Positions 1-14,074 of a stretch of DNA of 14,259 nt are shown here, piece after piece (position 1 is the stretch's first letter; each line of letters begins with the position of its first letter). The stretch covers positions 1-14,259 of the forward strand of contig JBIOXB010000133.1 of assembly GCA_044869275.1 (NCBI GenBank). Direction: 5' to 3'. The notes below the pieces were generated by a model. That model was not told the origin of the DNA, ran no database searches, and saw nothing but the letters and a program-made list of their open reading frames with translations. The DNA comes from a bacterium. Lineage in GTDB: Bacteria > Zhuqueibacterota > Zhuqueibacteria > Zhuqueibacterales > Zhuqueibacteraceae. Position numbers and translations under genes: made by a program.

Positions 1-280
1 TGCTGGCGTTGAAATTTCCGGCGCGCAAGCGATACCAATACGTTCCCGAAGGCGCCCACTGCCCTTGCTCGTCCTTGCCATCCCAGATGATCTCGTAGGT
101 GCCAGGCAAGCGTGCATCTGAGAGCAAGTGGCGGACAATCTGGCCAGCAATATTGTAAATTGCAAGCTCAACTTTCACGAACTGCGTGCCCGGCAAATCG
201 AAGCGGATCATGGTGTGTGCGGCCGCCGTTTTTGCCGCCAGCGGATTGGGATAGTTTTGATACAAGGAAAATGCTCTCGG
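1..280 (-). other. C-terminal FlgD-Ig / T9SS-type sorting domain of the large protein (last few residues outside window)
   Basis: PRAFSLYQNYPNP...TMIRFDLP...VKVELAIYNIAGQIVRHL...GTYEIIWDGKDEQG...SGTYWYRLRAG. Confidence 0.9.
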
Positions 281-3200
281 CGCCGCGGTAGCGGTGGAAG
301 TGCCGTGCACGCCCGCCTGTACTTCGGCGTGGCGCAAATCATCCACAAAATCGGAGGCAGAAAAATCCGCAGCTGACACGGCTTCGCCTTTTGCGACATA
401 TAAAACGTGGAATAGCTCGCCGCCGGCAGTGGATAAAATCGCCTGCGTATGAAAACCGCCCACGAGAATTTCGCCGCTCGCTAGCGCCGCGCCTTCCAGT
501 TTCACCCAATCTCCGGTCAACGCCGCGCGTTCGATACCCACGAATTCGAGCCGGTCCGCGGGATATGCGAAACGCATGCCGAACGCTTGCAGACCTTGCG
601 GATTATCCGCTCGCACCGCGACTTTCACCACCTCGGGCAAATTCGAATTGGGCGGCGGCAATACCACGCGCGGCTGCCACGTCAAGCGATAGGGTTCTGT
701 GCGCGCGATTGCTTTCGCGGGGCCGGTACGCGCAAAACAATCCTGCGGCGCGCCGCCGCGAAGATAACGATTGAAAATTTCAAACGCATCCCCGGGAGTG
801 ACGGCGCCATCGCAATTCACATCGGCTGCGGTCAACTCGCAATCAAACTCCGGGGCATCGCAAGAGGCCGGCACCGTGCCCGCGTTCAAGAAAATATTGA
901 AGGCGCAAAACGCGTCACCCGGGGTCAAAGTCAAGTCGCTGTTGACGTCGCCGTCGTGCGCGCAGCTCGTGCAGATAAACTCGTTGCAGCAACCGGTCAG
1001 CCCGGCGACATCGTCGGTGAGGCCGGTGATTTGAATCTCGCTGCTGGCGTCGGCGTCACAAGCGACGGTAAAACACAAGCGCAACAGCACGCCGCTGCTG
1101 TTGGCGGGTATGGCCGTGGTGCCAAAGCCGCCACAGATGATCACGCCCGAGCCGGGAGGAGTTTGGCGGGCCTCCTTGGTGACGAAATTTTGCGTCAAGT
1201 CGCCCGCTGTGAAGCTGGTGAAGGCCAGGTGTGCGGGGTTGACTTTGACTTGAAAACCAAAAGCGCCGATAGGCTGGGTATTTTGTTGCACGCGAATATC
1301 GACGCAGATCGTGCTGGCATCACGGCCGGAAATCGGCTCGCCAGCATTTGCGCCGCCCGCGCGCACCGGAAAAATGACGGGTCCGGCGCACGCGGAAGGT
1401 AAACACGGCGGATTGTCAGGATATGTCCGGGTTCTTGTATTGTTCACTTCACTGTATTCCAAAACGTTGTTGTTCACGTCCACCACCCCCTGAATGATGT
1501 TGCTACCCGCGGGCCACGTCAAGGGGGTAATGCACACAGTGGTAAATGGAGGGCCAGGCTCGGGGCCTGCGGTGGTAATCACTTGCCCGCAGAGCACAGT
1601 TCCGTTTAGACGGATTTCGACAAGAAAATTGCCAGCGCTTCCGTCACCGGTATTTCGCCAATTGAAATGTGCGTAGTATTGCTGTCCTGCGACGGGGTGA
1701 TCTATTTCCGAACCGGAATTTATGCCAGTTCGGAGAGATAGGTCAGAAGCAACCAAATCGGCTCGGCGCTGTGAGGTAGGAACTGCAATTAGCGAATATT
1801 CACCCAGACGCAGGTAATCGAGATTTTCATAGTGCGCGTCCTCGATGCGATAGCCGCGATCGCCGCCATCGGTGACCACGCCCCAGCGCGAGGGATGCAA
1901 TGGCAGCCAGCCCTCCGGCGTGCCGTCTTCAAAGTTATCAAACACCGTGCAAGTGCCGCCCGTGCCTGGCTTGAGGCAGATCTCATCCCAAATCGCCGAA
2001 TCATTGAATGACCCCAGGCCCATCCCGCCGCTGCCATATTCCGCGTCCGTGGCCGTGCCCAAAAGCGCGCCGTCCCAATAGACCTGCAAGTTTCCGCCGG
2101 AGCGGCGCAGGAGCACAGTGTGATAGCTGTTGTCGGAAATGACGAACGCGCCGAGATCACCGACCAAGATGCGCTCACGCTCGCGCACTTTATAAACGCG
2201 CGTTTCATTCAGCCCGCGATTGAACATGACGTAGTAGTAATGGCGCTCGTCTTGATAGCCGTACACAAAGCAAATATCCGCGCCGCCGTTGTTGCTGAGA
2301 TTTTCCGTGGACCGAGTCTGGGCCGTGAAGTCGAAGTCGCCAAAACTCTGAAAACCGAATACGCGGCTGGCGGTGTTGTTGTTCTCCGTGGGTTCGGCCA
2401 GATGGCTGTGCACGTCGAGCGCGCCTTCAATCACGCCACCGCCGGAAGGCCATTGAATGGGCGCGTCGCACCACACCGTACGGGAAGCTCCCGCAGGTGC
2501 GGTGACGGAGCTCACCCCGCAGATTTCGGCGCCATTGAAATATATGGCATAGCGAAACCCTGAAGCTGCACCGCCGAGATTGCTCCAATCAAAATGAATA
2601 TAGTATTGCTGTCCGGCTACAGGATTGGCGACTTCGGCGCCCGAGTTGGGACCGGTACGCAGGTAAACGCGGCTGGCCGACAAATCTGGCGGTGGCGTGG
2701 CGTCGCCCGGCCCAATCTGAATGCTGAAGGTGCTCGTCCAGGGCCCGCCGTTAGCCGCGCTGATGGTCATGGTGAAAAGGGCTGTTCGGGTTTGACTGAG
2801 CCCGGAGTTGACGCTGAAACCGAAATTGCTGCTGCTTTCGGCGGCGAGGCCGCCCGGAATGTCTGGCCAGAGATTGGAATTGTCAAAGATGGTGACGTCA
2901 GAATCCGACGTTGAAAGTAACGCGCTGACGCCGCTCGCAGTCAGTTCTCCTTGATTGCGCACGCTGACGACCAATTCGACGCGCTCGCCACCCTCGGCGC
3001 GGCCGTCGCCATCGCCAGTACTCGCGCCGGAGGAATTGTCATCAATTAGATGCGAGGAATAAACCAGTGGCCCGACCTCACCGGAGCCTTCCAGACATCC
3101 GCTCACGGAAACATCATCGAAGCAGGCCGTGCTTTGGTACGAGCCGAATCCGATCAGCCCGCTCATGAAAGTGCCGTCGGTGGGCGAAAACAACAGCCGG

Positions 3201-5800
3201 GAATCGGCCAGCACGCGAATGTTCTGCCCCTGCCGCTCGATGCGAATCGTATGGTAATTATTGTCGCTGGGATAACTGCCGGCAGTTGTGGCGATAACGA
3301 CAGCATTGCCGCCCACACTGCGAAACAAATCCACCGTGCTGGGAGTGAAACGCAAGTAATAACTGTCCTCCGTACTGTTTGGAAAATCTTGCACGCCAAA
3401 AATGACAAAGAAGTTCTTGTTGGAAGTGGCCGACGAGCGCACGCGCAGTTCCAAAGTGAAGTCCCGCCAGCGGCCGGCGGCCAGCACGCTATACTCGTCG
3501 CCGCCGGGATTGCCTGACCTGATGCAAAAGGCGGGATTGCCGTTGACCGGATCCACGCCCCAGTTTGAGATGACGCGCGGCAGCCAGCCGTCAAAGTTAT
3601 TGTCGGAAAAATTATCGGCGAGGGTGGCGGGTTGACATTCACCACCGTCGCCAATATTGACAAGATGAACGCCATGGGTAGTGGCCACACCGAAATTATC
3701 CACCGCGCGAATGTAATATTCCACGTCCGCGAGCGTTACCGCGCTGGCGGGAATCGTGCCAGTGTAGTTATTGCCGCCGGCATTGGTCATGCTCTGCTGT
3801 GTGAATAGCAGCGTGCCGAAAACGCGAAAGTACAACTCTACGGTCGTGATGAAATTGGTATTATCCTGCACTATGCAACTAATGGCAATGGCATTGCCGG
3901 TTGCGCCGCTGGTAATTGCGGTGTGGATAATTTGCGGTGGTTGGTTTGGCAATACTGCAATCTGATAAGGAGACGCAGCGGCATTCACGGCCGGATCCGA
4001 CGAAGTGACCTGGCCATCCGTGGCTGTGAGGTAATAATCGATTCCGGGTGGCTGTACCGCTCCACCCAAAATGGCGGCTTGGTAAATATTGCCGCTGCCG
4101 CGGGCCATCGCTGTGGAGAAGTAGGCTGGATCTCCCGTCCTGCGGTAGAACAGGGTCGCACTTTGCGTGAAGGGTGCCACGGGGTCCGTGATCTCGGCGG
4201 CGATGGTAAGGCTGGATCCTGCGATCTGTGCCGAACTGCTCAGGCCGATGGTCGCCGGCGTGCGCACGATGCGTGGCGCGACGCATGGAATATAGCTGCC
4301 ATTGGCTGTCGTGGAGCTGCCAGCGTGCGTGACAGTGACGGCGACATTTCTCGTCACCCCGTCGCAGGAGGGATTGCTGGAACGATAACTGACAATGTAA
4401 GTTCGCGCAACAATTTCAGTAATATCATCGAGAATTGTGTTGAAAGGGCTGGTGACGTTGAAGAACTCTCCGCCCGTGGCATTCGTAATGCTGCCCACGC
4501 CGACATATTGCGGGTCTTCAATGGCGACAGCATAACAGTTGACACCTGCGTTCGCCATGAACGTGTTGATTTGGCTCAGAGACGGCGGCGGCGGAGTGAC
4601 ATAAGAAGGCGCGGGTGGAACATGGCTGGGTGCGTCCGTGATGAGGATGAAAATCTTTTGTGCGCCGGGGCGAAACGAAAAGGAGCTCAGCGCTACATTC
4701 AGGGCGCCAAACGAATTCTCCGGAATATCTCCGCCGGCGCTGGCACCCAAGGCATTGATCCAGCTTTGATATTGGCTGATGTTTTGCGTCAAAATGCCGC
4801 TGTTGTAGAGGGAGACGTCATCTTTGAACGTCACCAGTCCAAGCGCGTAGTTGATGCTTCTCGTTTGCAGCGCGGTGAGAAAGTTGTTGACATTGTTGCG
4901 CACGGCCGCGATCTCCTCGGCCATGCTGCCGGTGTCGTCGATCAAAAAGATGATATCCGCGAGGCGAACGCCGCCACCGGCGTCGGGTGGAGTCACTGAA
5001 AAAAAGTCCGTCTGCAGCACGCCGTTTTCACGCGCGACGAAATTGTGCTGCGCCAGAATGGGAAGGCCCTCCCCGATCACTTCTACGTTCATATACGTAA
5101 ATGGAAAATTTTGACTGTTGAGATTTCTTATGATTGCGCTGAATGCGGAGCTGGTGGTCTGCGCGATTGCTGCAGAGCTGATGTGCCAGCCCGCATAAGC
5201 GTTACTGGCGTCCGAGACGAGATGAAAGGCGAGCCGGATTTCACGACGGGCAAACGGGGTCAAGTCAATCTCATGTTCGCGGCCGTCATTCTTGCCGTCG
5301 CGCGCGCTCAACGTGATCCAGGTCAGACCGTCATCGAGCGAGACTTTGACATACCCGAAATCATAGCCGCTTTCGAGCTCAAACCGCTCATGCAAATGCA
5401 GCGTAAAACGTGTCCCAAACTGAGGGGCAAGAAGCGTGAGGCGCGGGCTGATGGCCCAATCGTCTGCCTGATTGGAGTATGGCGCAGACGAGTTGCTGAT
5501 GGCCAGCGACGACACCGGCTTGCTGTTCGGCTGCGCGAGAACCTGTTGTGGCACCGTCCACCCGCCAGTTATTCGCCAGCCCGGTGCGCCAGCTGAAAAG
5601 GTTTCACGAGATATGATCTCGCGGCTGTCATCCTCGCGAGTCTGCGAAAGGGGAATGGCTGGTGTTGCCAGTAACGATCCCTTGGGCAAGTGTTGCGATG
5701 CTTCTTGCGCCCCCGCTGTTGCGATCGTGAAGAGCAAGGCCAGCATTGTCGTTGCGCATGGCCTGGCGCGCAGGTACTGCGTCGTCGAAAAAGCACTCAT
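1..5800 (-). CDS. Large secreted multidomain surface/adhesin-like protein (>=1933 aa, 3' end just outside window): VWA, ConA-like x2, CARDB x2, cohesin x2, dockerin, FlgD-Ig/T9SS-like C-terminal domain
   Basis: Manual translation from the ATG at 5800 (AGGAGG at 5810-5805) found no stop down to base 2. It begins with a signal peptide, MSAFSTTQYLRARPCATTMLALLFTIATAGA|QE. Motifs: ESGYDFGYVKVSLDDGLTW (beta-sandwich), DIIFLIDDTGSM...GGDIPE...IFILITDAP (VWA), GDVNSDLTLTPGD/ADVNCDGAVTPGD (dockerin), FSLYQNYPNP...IYNIAGQIVR...WDGKDEQGQWAPSGTYWYRL (FlgD-Ig/CTD). Confidence 0.95.
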   Translation of the reverse strand, partial: MSAFSTTQYLRARPCATTMLALLFTIATAGAQEASQHLPKGSLLATPAIPLSQTREDDSREIISRETFSAGAPGWRITGGWTVPQQVLAQPNSKPVSSLAISNSSAPYSNQADDWAISPRLTLLAPQFGTRFTLHLHERFELESGYDFGYVKVSLDDGLTWITLSARDGKNDGREHEIDLTPFARREIRLAFHLVSDASNAYAGWHISSAAIAQTTSSAFSAIIRNLNSQNFPFTYMNVEVIGEGLPILAQHNFVARENGVLQTDFFSVTPPDAGGGVRLADIIFLIDDTGSMAEEIAAVRNNVNNFLTALQTRSINYALGLVTFKDDVSLYNSGILTQNISQYQSWINALGASAGGDIPENSFGALNVALSSFSFRPGAQKIFILITDAPSHVPPAPSYVTPPPPSLSQINTFMANAGVNCYAVAIEDPQYVGVGSITNATGGEFFNVTSPFNTILDDITEIVARTYIVSYRSSNPSCDGVTRNVAVTVTHAGSSTTANGSYIPCVAPRIVRTPATIGLSSSAQIAGSSLTIAAEITDPVAPFTQSATLFYRRTGDPAYFSTAMARGSGNIYQAAILGGAVQPPGIDYYLTATDGQVTSSDPAVNAAASPYQIAVLPNQPPQIIHTAITSGATGNAIAISCIVQDNTNFITTVELYFRVFGTLLFTQQSMTNAGGNNYTGTIPASAVTLADVEYYIRAVDNFGVATTHGVHLVNIGDGGECQPATLADNFSDNNFDGWLPRVISNWGVDPVNGNPAFCIRSGNPGGDEYSVLAAGRWRDFTLELRVRSSATSNKNFFVIFGVQDFPNSTEDSYYLRFTPSTVDLFRSVGGNAVVIATTAGSYPSDNNYHTIRIERQGQNIRVLADSRLLFSPTDGTFMSGLIGFGSYQSTACFDDVSVSGCLEGSGEVGPLVYSSHLIDDNSSGASTGDGDGRAEGGERVELVVSVRNQGELTASGVSALLSTSDSDVTIFDNSNLWPDIPGGLAAESSSNFGFSVNSGLSQTRTALFTMTISAANGGPWTSTFSIQIGPGDATPPPDLSASRVYLRTGPNSGAEVANPVAGQQYYIHFDWSNLGGAASGFRYAIYFNGAEICGVSSVTAPAGASRTVWCDAPIQWPSGGGVIEGALDVHSHLAEPTENNNTASRVFGFQSFGDFDFTAQTRSTENLSNNGGADICFVYGYQDERHYYYVMFNRGLNETRVYKVRERERILVGDLGAFVISDNSYHTVLLRRSGGNLQVYWDGALLGTATDAEYGSGGMGLGSFNDSAIWDEICLKPGTGGTCTVFDNFEDGTPEGWLPLHPSRWGVVTDGGDRGYRIEDAHYENLDYLRLGEYSLIAVPTSQRRADLVASDLSLRTGINSGSEIDHPVAGQQYYAHFNWRNTGDGSAGNFLVEIRLNGTVLCGQVITTAGPEPGPPFTTVCITPLTWPAGSNIIQGVVDVNNNVLEYSEVNNTRTRTYPDNPPCLPSACAGPVIFPVRAGGANAGEPISGRDASTICVDIRVQQNTQPIGAFGFQVKVNPAHLAFTSFTAGDLTQNFVTKEARQTPPGSGVIICGGFGTTAIPANSSGVLLRLCFTVACDADASSEIQITGLTDDVAGLTGCCNEFICTSCAHDGDVNSDLTLTPGDAFCAFNIFLNAGTVPASCDAPEFDCELTAADVNCDGAVTPGDAFEIFNRYLRGGAPQDCFARTGPAKAIARTEPYRLTWQPRVVLPPPNSNLPEVVKVAVRADNPQGLQAFGMRFAYPADRLEFVGIERAALTGDWVKLEGAALASGEILVGGFHTQAILSTAGGELFHVLYVAKGEAVSAADFSASDFVDDLRHAEVQAGVHGTSTATAAPRAFSLYQNYPNPLAAKTAAAHTMIRFDLPGTQFVKVELAIYNIAGQIVRHLLSDARLPGTYEIIWDGKDEQGQWAPSGTYWYRLRAGNFNAS
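320..1320 (-). other. Cohesin - dockerin - cohesin block of the large protein (cohesin ~1320-990, dockerin ~955-735, cohesin ~640-320)
   Basis: Cohesin-like VDIRV...IGAFGFQVKVNPAHLAF...GDLT...GVLLRLCFTV and VKVAVRA...LQAFGMRFAYPADRLEFVGI...GELFHV. Two EF-like dockerin loops at 949-914 and 823-788. Confidence 0.8.
1421..2689 (-). repeat. Two homologous CARDB-like domains (2689-2357 and 1762-1421) flanking a ConA-like domain
   Basis: PDLSASRVYLRTGPNSGAEVANPVAGQQYYIHFDWSN...EPTENNN versus ADLVASDLSLRTGINSGSEIDHPVAGQQYYAHFNWRN...EYSEVNN. The 14-mer tagtattgctgtcc is identical at 2601-2614 and 1674-1687. Confidence 0.8.
4270..5150 (-). other. VWA domain with MIDAS motif within the large protein
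   Basis: DDTGS at 4939-4925, then LGLVTFKD, GGDIPEN, FRPGAQKIFILITDAP, ATGGEFF. Confidence 0.9.
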
Positions 5801-5804
5801 AATT

Positions 5805-5810
5805 CCTCCT
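5805..5810 (-). promoter_or_regulatory. Shine-Dalgarno of the large gene
   Basis: AGGAGG-AATT-ATG on the minus strand. Confidence 0.8.
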
Positions 5811-5910
5811 GGCTCCAAAGAAAGATAAATGATGGGATGGGTTAAAAGGCTGTTAGGCGCGAACGGAACCTTGGCCGTATGCCCCAAAGGATGAGATGGC
5901 CGAAATATCG

Positions 5911-7970: not shown

Positions 7971-8042
7971 CCAACGGATAGATTAAGACCAACTGATGAA
8001 AAGACTAAGAGTTCTATCCGTTGGAATTAATCTATCAGTTGG
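7971..8042. repeat. Imperfect inverted repeat whose arms are tandem 18-bp units CCAAC(G/T)GATAGATTAA (REP-like)
   Basis: Left arm CCAACGGATAGATTAAGACCAACTGATGAA; reverse complement of right arm CCAACTGATAGATTAATTCCAACGGATAGAA. Confidence 0.75.
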
Positions 8043-8236: not shown

Positions 8237-8480
8237 ATGCGAGAGCGCGCTTTCCCCGGCGCGAGGCTTTTCTGGGCTGCGGCAGATGAAGCTCGACCTA
8301 TATTCCTTTTTTCAAGAACAAGGCTACAAGAACCTTGTGAACCTGGCGCTCGCGATTGGCGGACAAAACGGCAGCGCCTCTCGGCTCACCCTGGCCGCGA
8401 CACCCACGGTTTCCGTAGGTGGCGTTCCAATAAAGTATCCGGGACAAATTCATATCGTTGATCAGGAGTTCAGAAATTGA
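8237..8480 (+). pseudogene. Internally deleted, frameshifted gene for an exported/LEA_2-like protein
   Basis: AAGGAG-6nt-ATG(8237) gives the signal-like MRERAFPGARLFWAAA. From ~8285 the conserved-looking C-terminus (MKLDLYSFF...NLALAIGGQNGSASRLTLAATPTV...KYPGQIHIVDQEFRN*) continues in another frame, and its stop overlaps the next ATG. Confidence 0.6.
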
Positions 8481-8851
8481 TGAATCGGTTCTGGCTGATC
8501 ATGGCGGCGATCTCGGGCTTTTTGTGCGTGGCGCTTGGCGCGTTCGGCGCGCATGCCTTAAGAAATGTCTTGGACAGCTACAGTCGCGGAATTTATGAAA
8601 AAGCTGTGCACTATCAAATGTTTCACTCCGTGGCATTGCTGGTGGCCGGCATTTTGCAAAGCTATTATCCGCAAAGTTCTTTCGCCGGCGCCGCATGGTC
8701 TTTTCTATTTGGCATCGTTCTTTTTTCCGGCAGCCTGTACTTGCTGGCCCTTACCGGCGTGAAGTGGTGGGGCGCGGTGACGCCGTTTGGCGGGCTGGCT
8801 TTTTTGCTGGGCTGGGCCTGGCTGGCCTATGCGCTGATGCGCGGAAAATGA
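8480..8851 (+). CDS. DUF423 (YgdD/TMEM256-like) membrane protein
   Basis: VALGAFGAHAL, AVHYQMFH, GIVLFSGSLYLLAL, GAVTPFGG..F.LGW. Start is TTG 8477 or ATG 8480. Confidence 0.93.
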   Translation: MNRFWLIMAAISGFLCVALGAFGAHALRNVLDSYSRGIYEKAVHYQMFHSVALLVAGILQSYYPQSSFAGAAWSFLFGIVLFSGSLYLLALTGVKWWGAVTPFGGLAFLLGWAWLAYALMRGK

Positions 8852-8869
8852 AAGATCAGAAGGGTTGCA

Positions 8870-9553
8870 ATGATTCCGTTAAAGGATGACAATCCCCGCG
8901 TGGCGTTTCCCGTGGTCAACACGTTGCTGATTGTTGCGAATGTCGCGGTGTACCTGCACGAGATGTTCCTGCCTCATGCCGAAACGGAGGCGTTCTTGAG
9001 GACTTATGGCGCCATCCCGGCGCAAATTGTCCAGGGCATGAATTATTCGACTCTATTCACTTCGATGTTCTTGCACGGCGGCATCCTGCACATTCTCGGC
9101 AACATGCTCTACTTGTTTATTTTCGGCGACAACATTGAAGGGGCGATGGGCTCGGTGCGCTATACGATTTTCTATGTGTTGTGCGGCCTCGGCGCGGCGA
9201 TGTCTCACATTCTGATTGATCCCAGTTCGGGGACGCCGATGGTGGGTGCGAGCGGAGCGATATCCGGCGTGTTGGGCGCCTATATGCTTACCTACCCCAA
9301 GGCCCGGGTGTTGGTGCTGTTCCCGATATTTATTTTTTATGTCACGACTTTTCGCGTGCCCGCTCTGGTCGTCCTGGGGTTGTGGTTTGTGAATCAACTG
9401 ATCAGCGGTTTGATTTACCAGAGGGATCCGCATGGCATGGGCGGCAGCATCGCTTGGTTTGCCCACATCGGCGGGTTTATCATTGGCATGCTGCTGGTCA
9501 AGCTGTTTGTCAACAAACAGCGCCCAGACGATGGGACACATGATTACACTTGA
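8870..9553 (+). CDS. Rhomboid family intramembrane serine protease
   Basis: MIPLKDDNP N-terminus, SMFLHGGILHILGNMLYLFIFGDNIE, catalytic GASG and AHIGG. Confidence 0.95.
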   Translation: MIPLKDDNPRVAFPVVNTLLIVANVAVYLHEMFLPHAETEAFLRTYGAIPAQIVQGMNYSTLFTSMFLHGGILHILGNMLYLFIFGDNIEGAMGSVRYTIFYVLCGLGAAMSHILIDPSSGTPMVGASGAISGVLGAYMLTYPKARVLVLFPIFIFYVTTFRVPALVVLGLWFVNQLISGLIYQRDPHGMGGSIAWFAHIGGFIIGMLLVKLFVNKQRPDDGTHDYT

Positions 9554-12312
9554 GGGGGCATGGGTTGGTGTTCATTGCTTCTCTTTTGGTATTTGCTCCC
9601 CGCCACTTCCACTCCCATCATCACCGCTGCGCCGAAAAGCAGACTCTCCAATCCCGACATGACGGTTTGCATGGGTTGGCCAAAACGGACTTTCCCGAAC
9701 ATGGCGGCGAACGAATCCATGCTGAGCTGTGAGTTGGCGAAAGCGCGCGCGATGATCGCCAGGCTGCCGCTGAAAAGATTGTAATGCAAAATCGCCAGGA
9801 GCAAGCCGGCGCACATCGCGCCGAGGCCTGCTCCCAAGACTTTTTGCCAGGGTCGCAACCGCGGCACCAAGCTCTCCACCACCACGGCGCCCAAGGCCAA
9901 CCCCACGCCGATGCTCGCCCCTTCCCACGCGCCCGTAATCCCGTTCAGATCCCGCCCGAACAAAGCGCGAAAAATATCCGTGCCGAGCTGATTTGCCAGG
10001 CCGCCAATCAATGCACCGCCCAGCCCCGCTCCGGGAACCGACCACCAGCGGCTATGGCGATAGGCAATATGGCGCACCGTCAACATGCCGAAACTCACAC
10101 CCAAGCCGCCCAATGCGCTCACGAGCACGGCAAGACTCACCAGCACCACGATAATGGAAGTGCCTTGCAGAATCGAAGTGTGCCGGGCCATCGCCAGGCC
10201 CGCGCCGAGCAGAACGCCGCCGATCGCTCCCGCACCGGCCGCGCCGAACATGCCTCCCAGGCCGCGGGCCATGATATCTCTGCCGCCGCGTTGCAGCCGC
10301 AACCCAATCAGACTGAAGAGAATCAATACTTGCGTCAGCAGGGTGTGGCGCTTGAGCCTCACCCAATCTCTTTGCTGATCGCGCAGCAAAGCAATACTGA
10401 AGGCCCGGCGCACCAGGCCGGCGCTTTCGCGCTCGTGATCTGCGCATAAAATGATTTCGGCGGATCGTGCCAGCCATTCGCCCAGGGCCACACTGGCGTG
10501 GCGGCGCACGCGCAATTCTTCATCCCAAAGCGCCAGCTCGCGCAGCAGCATCTGGCTTTCGGTGTTCCGCAACGTGGCACAAGCGGCGATGGCGCACAGG
10601 CGTACCTTCTCCTCTTTGTGCCGCGCCGCGGCAACCACGAGGCTTTGCGCGGAAGGAGCCGTCGTGCTCAGCCATTCCGGCGCGGGCTGGCCACGATTGA
10701 GCAAGCTCATCAGCAACAGATCCGCTTCTTCACCCGTGAGGCCAAGCTGGGAGTCGAAAGGAAGCAGAAGCTGCAAGGCATCAGCATCGATCAACAAACT
10801 GTGCGCGCGATAATTTTCCGCCGCGCGCTGGATGATGCCGCGCGCGCGCTTCAAAGCGATCGTTTCCGCCGTGATCCAGCGCATGATTTCCGGCAGCAAA
10901 AAGTCATGCGCCAGTTCCACCCAGCCTTCGCCGTCTTGATTGCGGTAGCGCACGATGCGGGCGGCCGCGAGCTCTTCCAGCAACGCGCCGGCGTGTTTGG
11001 TTTTCGCATGCATGCGCGCATGCAGCTCGGCGACGCGCAGCACCAAGCGCTGGTTGTCGGCGGAAATCAAAGCCGTCAATATTTCCCGCGCCGCTTGCAA
11101 ATCACTGGCGTTGAAGTGATGCAGCACGCGTTCCAAATAACCCGCCAGGATTCGCGCCGCCGTGCCGAGTTTATCATAAGCCGCAACCGTCAGCCGGCCG
11201 CCGTGGTCGCGCGCGTCGAACAGGCGGTCGCAGACGATTTGCAGTTGCGGCGGATCGATGCTGCCATGATCGCTCAAATCGGCCAGCACCCGCTCCACCA
11301 ATTCCGGCTGCCAAACGCTGCCAACGGCGCGCGCCGGCTCGATCATCGCGCGCACGGCTTGTTCGTGATTGAAGCGCTGCAAGCGGTATTCGTGGTGGAA
11401 AATTTCGGGAATCGCCGTTTTGAACTGGCTCATGTCGGCGAGGCGGTCTTCGCGCAAAGCGAACGCCAGGTGCAATTGCAGAGCTTCATTTTGGAACAAT
11501 GCCGCAAGCGCGCCAATAAACTCGCGCCGTTGGTCCCCGGGCAGGAGCAGAAAAAATTCTTCAAATTGATCGAAAAGAAAAATAACACGCCGCTGCGGTG
11601 CTTGCCGGTTCCAATGCTGTAGAATTTCCGCCAGGCTGAAAAGGTGGCAGGAAGGCAGATCCGAAACCGCGGCCTCGCGCAACGCCAGTGTCATTTGCTG
11701 CAAAGGGTTTTGGAAGCTGCGCATAACGAAGACGAGGTGCTGTTGCGCCTTGAGGCGCGGCAGCAAGCCCGCGCGCAGCAGCGAGCTTTTACCCACACCC
11801 GATCGGCCGTGCAAAATAAATGAACGGTGCGCCAAGATTTGCGAGCCGATGATTTCGATTTCCGCTTCGCGCCCGAAAAACAGAGCCGCATCATGTTCGG
11901 TGAAGTAATCTAAAAACTTGTAGGGCCGCGCACCGGACGCGGTTGGGGTGGCCGCGAGCAGCGCGCCGTTGGGCTCTTCCACGGCGACGGCTTGTCCGAT
12001 GAAAACATAACCGTGTTTCGGCACAGTTTTGATGTAACGCGGCTGCGCCACTTCATCCCCCAATTGCTTGCGAATATCCTTGATGCATTGCGTCAGCGCC
12101 GCGTCAGTGACGATCACGCCCTGCCACACTTCCTCAAAAATGCGCTGCTTTTCCACCAGTTGCCCTTGATGGCGGATCAGCAAATGCAGCACTTCGAAAT
12201 ACTTCGAAGTAAGGGCCTGCGGCTTTCCCGCACGCCAAAGTTGGCGATTGTGCACATCGAAGAAGAATTCGTCGCAACGATAGCCAGCGATTTTATGTTC
12301 ACTCACGCTCAT
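9544..12312 (-). CDS. Membrane-anchored regulator: OmpR/CadC-type winged helix + nSTAND1-type P-loop NTPase + HEAT-like repeats + Gly-rich multi-TM domain
   Basis: wHTH: FEVLHLLI...LVEK...VW.GVIVTDAALTQCIKDIRKQLGD...YIKTVPKHGYVF. STAND: RPYKFLDYF...FFGRE, GRSGVGKSSLLRAG, FLFDQFEEFF, PPQLQIVC, ELAHDFL. HEAT-like VRRHASVALG. About 7 hydrophobic helices at the C-terminus. Start is ATG 12312 or GTG 12318. Confidence 0.92.
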   Translation of the reverse strand: MSVSEHKIAGYRCDEFFFDVHNRQLWRAGKPQALTSKYFEVLHLLIRHQGQLVEKQRIFEEVWQGVIVTDAALTQCIKDIRKQLGDEVAQPRYIKTVPKHGYVFIGQAVAVEEPNGALLAATPTASGARPYKFLDYFTEHDAALFFGREAEIEIIGSQILAHRSFILHGRSGVGKSSLLRAGLLPRLKAQQHLVFVMRSFQNPLQQMTLALREAAVSDLPSCHLFSLAEILQHWNRQAPQRRVIFLFDQFEEFFLLLPGDQRREFIGALAALFQNEALQLHLAFALREDRLADMSQFKTAIPEIFHHEYRLQRFNHEQAVRAMIEPARAVGSVWQPELVERVLADLSDHGSIDPPQLQIVCDRLFDARDHGGRLTVAAYDKLGTAARILAGYLERVLHHFNASDLQAAREILTALISADNQRLVLRVAELHARMHAKTKHAGALLEELAAARIVRYRNQDGEGWVELAHDFLLPEIMRWITAETIALKRARGIIQRAAENYRAHSLLIDADALQLLLPFDSQLGLTGEEADLLLMSLLNRGQPAPEWLSTTAPSAQSLVVAAARHKEEKVRLCAIAACATLRNTESQMLLRELALWDEELRVRRHASVALGEWLARSAEIILCADHERESAGLVRRAFSIALLRDQQRDWVRLKRHTLLTQVLILFSLIGLRLQRGGRDIMARGLGGMFGAAGAGAIGGVLLGAGLAMARHTSILQGTSIIVVLVSLAVLVSALGGLGVSFGMLTVRHIAYRHSRWWSVPGAGLGGALIGGLANQLGTDIFRALFGRDLNGITGAWEGASIGVGLALGAVVVESLVPRLRPWQKVLGAGLGAMCAGLLLAILHYNLFSGSLAIIARAFANSQLSMDSFAAMFGKVRFGQPMQTVMSGLESLLFGAAVMMGVEVAGSKYQKRSNEHQPMPPQV

Positions 12313-12356
12313 GGTCACGTTTTTCTCACCGTTTTCTCATGCTGGGCTCACGTCTT
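12313..12356. promoter_or_regulatory. Four tandem 11-bp direct repeats, candidate wHTH operator
   Basis: GGTCACGTTTT / TCTCACCGTTT / TCTCATGCTGG / GCTCACGTCTT, with TCA at 12315, 12326, 12337 and 12348. Confidence 0.65.
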
Positions 12357-12564
12357 TTGGAATATTTACCCTTAAATTCATCCACACGAAGCGCGAGCGT
12401 AAAGATTCAATTTCATAAACCATTTCTTTGCGAAGTGAGTTCAGCTCCCGGCCGAAATATTTTGGACAACCATATCGCTCAAGCATAAAGAATACCGCAT
12501 GCAGAAGCAAGCGTTTTATCGTGACCCTCGAACGCAACAAAGTTGGATGCGCCGGAGAAGCTGC

Positions 12565-13308
12565 ATGACCTCTTCACAATTCCGGCAGTTGAGGATGCGG
12601 CTTGCACGACTCGTCTTGACCACTGCCGGAGCGGTGCTTATTTTTTGGACCGCAGCAACTATCGTCACGGAGAGAGCCGTGCCGTTTGCCGGCCCGCTGT
12701 TGCCCGCAAGCGCTTCGATTTCGGCGTCAGGATATGAGCGAGCCGTCGCCAGGGCGAGAGATCACATTCAGGCCATGATGCTTGAGCGCCAAATTCCCGG
12801 CCTGTCGGTGGCGGTCGCCGTAAAGGGAGTATTGGTCTGGTCCGAAGCTTTTGGCTATAAATGGGCCGCAGGCGGTTTTCTTTCGACGGCGGAGGATTTG
12901 GTGCGATTCGGTTCGGCGCATATGGCTCCGATGAATAAAGGATTTCTGAAGCCGGAAACCCTGGAGCTTCTGTTTGCACCGCGCACCGGGCCGGCCGGCG
13001 TGTTGGGTTACGGCTTGGGATGGATGACGGCGCGCGACTTGCACTTGCGCCGCGCTCACTTCCAATTTGGCGCAGCATCAGGCGGCACTTCCGTATTTGT
13101 GATTTATCCCGAACAAAGCGTGTGCATGGCAATAGTATGCAATCTCGGCCATGCCCGATTTCCCTTCGCGCGGCTGATGGGAGTGGTCAATCCCTTTTTG
13201 AGCGATCCCGCCAAGATCGTATTGAGGGTGGTCGCAGTCTTTTTGCTGGCAGGCGGCATGACCATCCTGCTCCGGTGTTTGAATAAACGAAACAAAGCAC
13301 TCAGATAA
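12565..13308 (+). CDS. Serine hydrolase (beta-lactamase-like) homologue with in-frame loss of the catalytic SxxK/YxN region; N- and C-terminal TM helices
   Basis: [22 protein letters not shown] is joined directly to [18 protein letters not shown]...YGLGW. GGAG lies 7 nt before ATG 12565. It may be a pseudogene. Confidence 0.75.
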
Positions 13309-13318
13309 AGGGCTTATC

Positions 13319-14074
13319 ATGACTCCAAACGATTTCATCGCATCAACAAGCACCGGATTGCACGTGGCGATCATCATGGACGGCAACGGCCGCTGGGCCA
13401 ATGCCCACGGCTGGTCGCGGCCGGCCGGGCATCGCGCCGGCGCGGAAAATGTGCGCCACATTGTCGAAGCTTCGCCGGAGCTCGGCATCAACGCGCTGAC
13501 TTTGTACGCCTTTTCTTCGGACAATTGGCAGCGCCCGGCGCGCGAAGTTGACGCGCTCATGCGATTGTTCGATTTCTATTTGCATGCTGAAATCGATCGC
13601 TGCGTGCGCAACGGCGTGCGCGTCAGTATCATCGGCCGCCGCGACCGGCTGTCGCCGGCTATTTTAGCAGCGGTGGAAGAAATTGAAAACACCACACGTC
13701 CCGGCCGGGTTTTGCATCTGCGCTTGGCGATCGATTATTCGTCGCGCGATGCGATTCTGCATGCCGCGCAAAAGCTCGCGCACAACAGCGCTGGATCACG
13801 CGAAAAATTTGCGCAAGTACTGGCGCAGGTGTATCATGAAGATTCGCCCGCGCGTGACGTCGATTTGCTGATTCGTACCGGCGGCGAGCAGCGCCTGAGC
13901 GATTTTCTGTTGTGGGAATGTGCTTATGCGGAATTGTATTTCACTCCGCGGCCATGGCCGGATTTTCGCGTGAATGATTTGGAAGACGCCGTACGGCAAT
14001 TCCAGCAGCGCGAGCGGCGTTTCGGGCGAGTGGCGGATATCGTCGTTCAGAAGCCCGCGGTCAAAGCAGCTTGA
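13319..14074 (+). CDS. uppS: cis-prenyltransferase (UppS/isoprenyl transferase family), divergent paralog type
   Basis: [68 protein letters not shown]. Confidence 0.95.

Follow-up and report, generated by a model that had tools for sequence, protein, structure and literature searches.

The window analysed here is the whole 14,259-nt stretch of contig JBIOXB010000133.1 (C133 of a 6.7-Mb genome that we label G000, from a bacterium of the Zhuqueibacteraceae), and its subject is a single minus-strand gene that encodes a predicted membrane-embedded transcription regulator with an ATPase in the middle of the chain. The gene, the domains of its product and the elements before it are:

9544..12318, minus strand: regulator gene, 924 amino acids (aa), combining a winged helix-turn-helix (wHTH), an nSTAND1 module, a helical arm and a membrane domain
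12001..12225, minus strand: Trans_reg_C (OmpR/PhoB-type winged helix), aa 32-106, Pfam E 5e-18
10804..11925, minus strand: nSTAND1 nucleoside triphosphatase (NTPase) module, aa 132-505, Pfam E 7e-57, profile positions 1-373 of 379
10309..10803, minus strand: helical HEAT-like arm, aa 506-670, all-helical in the structure model
9574..10308, minus strand: Gly-rich six-helix membrane domain, aa 671-915, from the structure model; no named family
12314..12350, minus strand: predicted operator TGAG-N7-TGAG-N7-TGAG-N7-TGAC, 11-bp period, directly before the regulator start
12373..12378, plus strand: -10 box TAAATT of a divergent target promoter, 22 nt from the nearest repeat
12482..12510, minus strand: predicted sigma70-type regulator promoter TTGCTT-17-TATGCT, facing the target promoter

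The probable start codon is the ATG at 12312, and the database version of the regulator has 922 aa. A full-length AlphaFold model (pLDDT 77, pTM 0.41) gives the order wHTH, disordered linker (~20 aa), STAND module, helical arm and helical C-terminal domain; its Foldseek matches are Cdc6/ORC, proteins of the Apaf-1/NLR/MalT type and ToxR on DNA. The folded unit of the wHTH spans ~aa 10-114 and aligns with DNA-bound ToxR (8b4b) at a root-mean-square deviation (rmsd) of 1.6 over 109 columns (Foldseek). The original prediction, made from the letters of the window, named an OmpR/CadC-type wHTH and an intact nSTAND1-type NTPase: the first was recovered by a hidden Markov model scan, and the second by a near-full profile match in which the Walker A, Walker B, sensor Arg, PPQLQ and LAHD motifs are all intact. 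Two further claims had to be revised. The predicted HEAT repeats are reduced to a HEAT-like arm, which is helical in the model, since the HEAT_2 match (aa 560-614, E 0.002) is weak and below the Pfam cut-off; and in place of some seven transmembrane (TM) helices the model of the membrane domain has six long helices and two short ones.

Conservation of the catalytic motifs was counted over 126 aligned full-length sequences. Walker A (G171, G174, G176 and K177), Walker B (D250 and E253), the sensor Arg (R289), P357 (GxP-like) and H471 of the LAHD (MHD-like) motif are each present in 126 of 126. Among the matches listed, 120 (119 without the window's own protein) align over 96-100% of the query with identities of 53-77%, and all 80 genome loci of this long form carry the ATPase. 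A contig from run X1 (possibly the source sample) covers 9000-13389 without differences, and no joint falls inside the regulator gene. Full-coverage relatives and the ATPase at every locus rule out an assembly chimera: the 924-aa regulator is real, conserved and uncharacterised. A literature search, conducted mostly without subscription papers and supplements, found no paper on a family that unites wHTH, nSTAND1 and this membrane domain; lists of transmembrane transcription regulators in the supplements of PMC10269533, which lay outside that search, may include these proteins.

The operator was not listed by a repeat finder and was recovered by comparative footprinting. On the minus strand of the window TGAG lies at 12350, 12339 and 12328, and TGAC at 12317: the four repeats of the original prediction are thus present here, but three only are kept across relatives, where the general consensus upstream of the regulator start is TGAG-N7-TGA(G/T)-N7-TGAG. 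At least 11 of 12 bases are found in 67 of the 80 long-form upstream regions, against 0.06 expected in shuffles, and in 49 of 80 upstream regions of a shorter form described below (0.03 expected). From these sequence comparisons we predict that the regulator very probably binds the TGAG operator.

Promoter geometry was analysed at 50 dereplicated long-form sites: 38 have a TAnnnT box on the other strand at a distance of exactly 22 nt from the closest repeat, and no other offset is shared by more than 6. The -35 position of the target promoter is occupied by a repeat and an A-rich run, with no TTGACA consensus. Because the repeat is phased to the -10 box and a consensus -35 is absent, the layout would be that of an activator-dependent promoter. 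A transcript from the predicted promoter of the regulator, which faces the target promoter, would traverse the operator; among related genomes, a sigma70-like pair precedes the regulator in 22 of 74 upstream regions (~5 in shuffles). The same geometry could be read in the opposite sense, with a repressor on the repeats that blocks both facing promoters until a signal or proteolysis releases it: the closest repeat overlaps the target's -35 zone as well as the leader of the regulator itself, and in the window a gene for a rhomboid protease is directly next to the regulator. However, targets that lack a consensus -35 and are exactly phased to the -10 are typical of activators, and a rhomboid neighbour occurs in only 1 of 80 related loci; we regard repression as very unlikely.

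A separate conserved element, GCAAC-N19-TCTAA, which might be a promoter for an alternative sigma factor, lies ~32 nt before the operator in Blastocatellia loci (L037, L043, L047, L050-L052 and others). It occurs in 14 of 74 regulator upstream regions (0.35 in shuffles) and was not accepted as an extracytoplasmic function (ECF) promoter, nearly all cases coming from one Blastocatellia clade.

The operon that diverges from the regulator includes two genes:

12499..13308, plus strand: serine hydrolase (beta-lactamase/penicillin-binding protein fold), first gene of the target operon
13319..14074, plus strand: second uppS copy, PRK14839-type cis-prenyltransferase, above the NCBIfam cut-off; main predicted target

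UppS makes the lipid carrier and HpnC/D/E make squalene; both consume farnesyl diphosphate (FPP). Linkage of the regulator to uppS, on which the original prediction leaned, is borne out by 46 of 80 long-form loci in which uppS lies divergently upstream; hpnD is found in 19 and hpnE in 19. Where at least 3 kb of upstream sequence is available (64 loci), uppS is present in 39 and hpnD in 19: one or the other in 58, both in none. The housekeeping uppS of the window's own genome lies elsewhere (C230). The regulated uppS is of the PRK14839 type in KSB1 and Calditrichota and of the PRK14830 type in the Blastocatellia case tested, and two uppS copies are present in 7 of 7 Blastocatellia-type genomes checked.

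Operator and promoter box were combined into one pattern, with the reversed pattern as control. Within the regulator's own family a single full-length copy is present in each of 13 of 19 genomes (among them G001 and G014, both unpublished), and the pattern is found in all 13, as well as in one 59%-complete genome; it is found in none of five near-complete same-genus genomes in which the regulator was not found, and the control gives 0 in 19. Of 29 Acidobacteriota genomes with the long form, 28 carry the pattern (control 0). A search of 42 genomes at greater distance turned up no full-length regulator. In the window's own genome there is one other strong site (32 bits, the next scoring 18.5), which precedes a DUF4153 gene.

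Gene content was examined at 20 fetched sites, mostly distant from the regulator. At seven, uppS is the first or second gene after the site (two of the seven adjoin the regulator), and one site heads a tsf-pyrH-frr-uppS-cdsA-dxr operon (G114). CreD-like genes follow six, and the four that were scanned are all CreD; the others include serine hydrolases (2), an ABC transporter with an M1 peptidase domain (2), YjbQ (1) and a permease/SPFH operon (1). In six genomes the regulator has neither uppS nor hpnD as a neighbour, and five of these genomes have a site in front of a uppS located elsewhere. At twelve uppS loci a further site lies closer to uppS; matrix building made no use of these second sites. 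No site was found near the housekeeping uppS genes of G000, G063, G095 and G108. Nor was a site found in the regions inspected in G084, G003, G012 and G005: uppS is uncalled in the first three, and in G005 the contig stops short of a promoter. The link to envelope damage that had been proposed is supported by the fetched sites, whose other predicted targets are envelope-stress genes. Passages of 10.1101/2024.11.21.624715 describe an increase of CreD by more than 30-fold in Burkholderia strains with a block in late glycan steps, and the authors suggest that CreD takes part in recycling of undecaprenyl phosphate (Und-P); colicin M induces CreD, according to passages of PMC3599342. By its predicted members, the regulated set is likely to be an envelope and lipid regulon.

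Three further observations concern individual sites. In G114 (L277, contig C223) the operator lies between rpsB and tsf, before the housekeeping uppS operon, an arrangement found in one of the four genomes checked from that group. In G000 the other strong operator and promoter (L213, C250:8225-10184) precede a 607-aa DUF4153 membrane protein, a pairing repeated in G004. PRK14839-like uppS copies in genomes without the operator (L285-L287; G084, G003 and G012) adjoin genes for a small HTH protein and a membrane protein; there the paralog may be under another regulator.

The long-form architecture is widespread: its loci belong to KSB1, Blastocatellia, Latescibacterota/Gemmatimonadota, Calditrichota and Zixiibacteriota, and the closest named relatives are labelled KSB1. 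The original prediction held that the membrane domain recurs in shorter regulators made of a wHTH and several TM helices. This is so: a profile search with the membrane domain gave 362 representatives at 50% clustering, and among the 85 scanned for architecture (picked by length from 150 listed) most are wHTH+TM proteins of ~350 aa, nine have nSTAND1 and one has an unrelated architecture. Membrane domains of the short and long forms align at a TM-score of 0.91 (Atlas). A quick, unrooted tree of the shared parts splits 19 long from 42 short forms by one branch (SH-aLRT 97), a topology that fits a single insertion of STAND module and arm and leaves the direction undecided. Because the short form uses the same operator without the ATPase, the STAND module would be an add-on to a shared sensing and DNA-binding core.

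Short forms are found in cultured sphingomonads, and the plasmid relatives of metagenome short forms are sphingomonads also. Of 301 Acidobacteriota genomes, 18 matched the short form, 15 with both parts on one contig; the repeat motif is present at 12 of these 15 loci, whose neighbours are uppS (3), CreD (4), YjbQ (7), B12 radical SAM (3) and a serine hydrolase (1). At metagenome short-form loci the usual target is an unnamed membrane protein of ~190 aa (L120:1364-1975, minus strand, and relatives) with 1130 matches and no Pfam match below E 0.1; it also occurs in three long-form operons.

Modelled alone, the membrane domain reaches pLDDT 94 and pTM 0.91. Its fold has no Foldseek match at E<=0.001, the best VIA matches (Z 9.6 and 11.2) fall below helical-bundle level, a PDB sequence search gave none below E 0.049, and the only Atlas features are unnamed clusters, under 0.9. 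It is an unnamed, confidently modelled candidate sensor fold. Weak likenesses were seen to RibU, an energy-coupling factor S-component (Z 8.1, rmsd 4.1, 155 aligned; in Atlas an S-component gives TM 0.45, short of the Atlas threshold), and also to the ADP/ATP carrier (Z 11.2, rmsd 4.9, 210 aligned). These likenesses, together with ribB and yjbQ among the targets, would suit a metabolic sensor: a basket-like fold that binds a vitamin or isoprenoid precursor and controls lipid modification (uppS with B12 radical SAM and YjbQ; ribB with hpnCDE). Yet all the fold scores lie below the helical-bundle level of the tools, S-component-type Pfam matches are weak and confined to 1-2 of 98 members each, and CreD and serine hydrolases are at odds with a vitamin regulon; we consider a metabolic sensor quite improbable.

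Four residues of the membrane domain – D781, E799, S852 and E891 – are conserved in both long and short forms (among short forms, E799 in 34/34, E891 in 33/34 and D781 in 31/34), and by the positive-inside rule they would sit in the outer half of the membrane. A variant reading keeps the operator and the activator but changes the ligand. The signal would be a cationic agent from outside the cell, whether an antimicrobial peptide, a lipopeptide, a metal or pH, bound in an acidic pocket that faces outward; uppS would be one of several repair outputs, and the level of lipid carrier would not be read directly. The conserved acidic residues speak for this reading, as does the mixed make-up of the targets, which include an ABC transporter, serine hydrolases and small membrane proteins; set against these is the independent, repeated capture of FPP-consuming uppS or hpnC/D/E, which suggests an isoprenoid-lipid link. 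We judge the cationic signal unlikely.

Two copies of aa 128-510, with ATP and Mg, were predicted as a symmetric dimer with a score of 0.52 (best control 0.11). The mark for this score, reached by 20 of 30 solved pairs and by 1 of 23 single chains, is roughly applicable here, our run having used its own alignment and ligands; contact agreement between runs is at least 19% and partner pLDDT at least 79. The interface would comprise aa 170-171, 290-297 and 305-312. The two-copy prediction supports a symmetric dimer of the STAND module and gives no support to an NLR-type ring.

On balance, we favor a one-component, membrane-embedded activator of a regulon for the cell envelope and the isoprenoid lipid carrier, with the STAND module as an added switch. 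The six-helix domain would respond to a condition of the inner membrane; the most plausible cue would be that the undecaprenyl carrier, or cell-wall intermediates, run short or become trapped. The signal would travel through a cytoplasmic YRHSRWW loop (restricted to long forms) and along the helical arm into the STAND module; this module would change its nucleotide state and dimerise as modelled. The wHTH domains would then array on the 11-bp TGAG repeats, the nearest at the -35 of a promoter without a good -35, and from this geometry may recruit RNA polymerase. Predicted outputs are the spare uppS, CreD, DUF4153 and serine hydrolases, with hpnC/D/E in one lineage; autoregulation is expected too, since the operator lies across the regulator's own transcript. 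Short wHTH+TM forms would act likewise without the ATPase, the STAND module adding a threshold or amplifier. Such a regulator would probably let these bacteria sense and repair cell-envelope trouble.

Several observations weigh against this interpretation. uppS is not universal: in the Latescibacterota/Gemmatimonadota group the regulator instead faces hpnC/D/E together with ribB or an alcohol dehydrogenase gene, and the single uppS operon has no site in three of the four genomes of that group checked. The original prediction placed shorter regulators beside uppS paralogs, which holds for the three Acidobacteriota loci and for none of 80 metagenome short-form loci, 48 of which face the small unnamed membrane protein; YjbQ (7 of the 15 Acidobacteriota loci) and B12 radical SAM are not known envelope proteins. 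In a third set of genomes a looser pattern is found in only 11 of 24 (control 1), and the genomes throughout are related, so that counts are not independent. Acidic invariant membrane residues fit a cationic or metal-bridged ligand better than direct contact with anionic Und-P; and in AfsR, ATP boosts activation with the oligomer state unchanged, according to passages of PMC10936776. That the membrane domain reads the lipid carrier directly is a tentative proposal. In the same tentative spirit, the family may consist of undescribed one-component receptors that read the undecaprenyl/polyprenyl/FPP-derived pool through the six-helix sensor, the long form coupling it to transcription via an NLR-type ATPase.

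Were this so, the family would be a diderm counterpart of SigM homeostasis and would include a STAND protein gated by a membrane lipid. Little is understood of how two-membrane bacteria gauge the supply of their cell-wall lipid carrier, which is scarce, and the family is a concrete candidate that comes with an operator, a promoter geometry, a list of targets and residues to mutate. Short and long forms amount to a natural experiment on what a STAND module contributes to a membrane transcription factor, and, because short forms occur in cultured sphingomonads, the idea is testable now.

The remaining genes of the window are of lesser bearing. Compared with the orthologue in the same operon of G016, the serine hydrolase has lost ~180 internal aa in frame, SxxK included, and is probably inactive. 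Contigs from runs X2, X3 and X6 do not cover 12520-13223, with the flanks partly covered, and a same-genus locus is without the gene; since the run contigs skip the region and that locus is without it, the serine hydrolase may be strain-specific. DUF423 and rhomboid protease genes (8477-9553, plus strand) converge on the regulator, the ends of the rhomboid and regulator genes overlapping by 10 nt; rhomboid-dependent proteolysis was rejected on the rarity of this neighbor. A large secreted protein of more than 1960 aa (2-5887, minus strand), cut by the contig end, has MAM-like, VWA, CARDB and cohesin/dockerin-like domains and a FlgD-Ig tail, and an inverted repeat (7971-8042; 27 nt, 85% complementary, 18-nt gap) lies in an AT-rich intergenic region.

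The regulator bears comparison with several known systems, first with AfsR, the large SARPs and the STAND activators, MalT among them. Shared with AfsR are an N-terminal OmpR-type DNA-binding domain, a STAND NTPase, a helical arm and a C-terminal sensor; but the regulator has no bacterial transcriptional activation (BTA) domain (no BTAD match at E<=0.1), its sensor is a six-helix membrane domain where that of AfsR is TPR, and its NTPase belongs to the nSTAND1 clade, as whole-module profile match and intact motifs show. Direct repeats of 11 bp at the promoter core are a further likeness, whereas the nearest conserved repeat lies 22 nt from the -10 here and 8 bp in SARP (passages of PMC10936776). 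Thus the OmpR-type domain and the period agree with membership of the SARPs, while the BTA domain and the spacing from repeat to -10 do not.

With ToxR and CadC the regulator shares a cytoplasmic Trans_reg_C wHTH tethered to the inner membrane in a one-component design, and one short form is annotated 'transcriptional regulator, CadC'. It differs in its six helices, in having no large periplasmic domain and in the 540-aa insert of STAND module and arm; the NCBIfam model of CadC scores 57.9 bits (cut-off 400) on the wHTH only, which places the regulator outside ToxR/CadC proper. With a DNA-binding domain and, as modelled, TM helices in one chain, it does belong to the broad class of transmembrane transcription regulators. 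In the accessible text of a survey of that class (PMC10269533), ATPase/AAA appears in the references only and no such class is named. CreBC (BlrAB) likewise controls creD (abstract of PMC4689548), but is a kinase with a response regulator, whereas the regulator here has no phosphorelay domains.

Avs and NLR-like defence STANDs share the nSTAND1 clade and the order N-effector, NTPase, C-sensor, and nSTAND1 was described from conflict, or counter-invader, systems (passages of PMC8195603 and 10.1101/2023.09.22.558884), which would suit an anti-phage or conflict protein. The output here, however, is a transcription domain with a defined operator, the sensor is a membrane domain, PADLOC gives no match (0 families), each of the 13 family genomes has a single full-length copy, synteny with metabolic genes is stable with no recurring defence-gene cluster among the neighbors, and the C-terminal domain is conserved rather than variable, with no toxic effector domain. 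Nor does any observation here hint that phage is the signal. A phage-defence role is unlikely, and an Avs/NLR-like protein of this kind we hold to be highly improbable.

In function, the nearest parallel is SigM-YhdL/YhdK of Bacillus subtilis, a membrane-held regulator that answers Und-P shortage; the authors of that study expect analogous pathways to be common (abstract of PMC11081497). It is a parallel of working and not a claim of homology: there an ECF sigma/anti-sigma pair, here a single chain, found in diderm phyla, that has uppS itself among its predicted targets. The regulator, then, is a variant of the STAND regulators and of the transmembrane transcription regulators; its membrane sensor domain is unnamed, and its predicted regulon can be recovered. 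On the best reading of these analogies, it would resemble AfsR in architecture and SigM-YhdLK in function.

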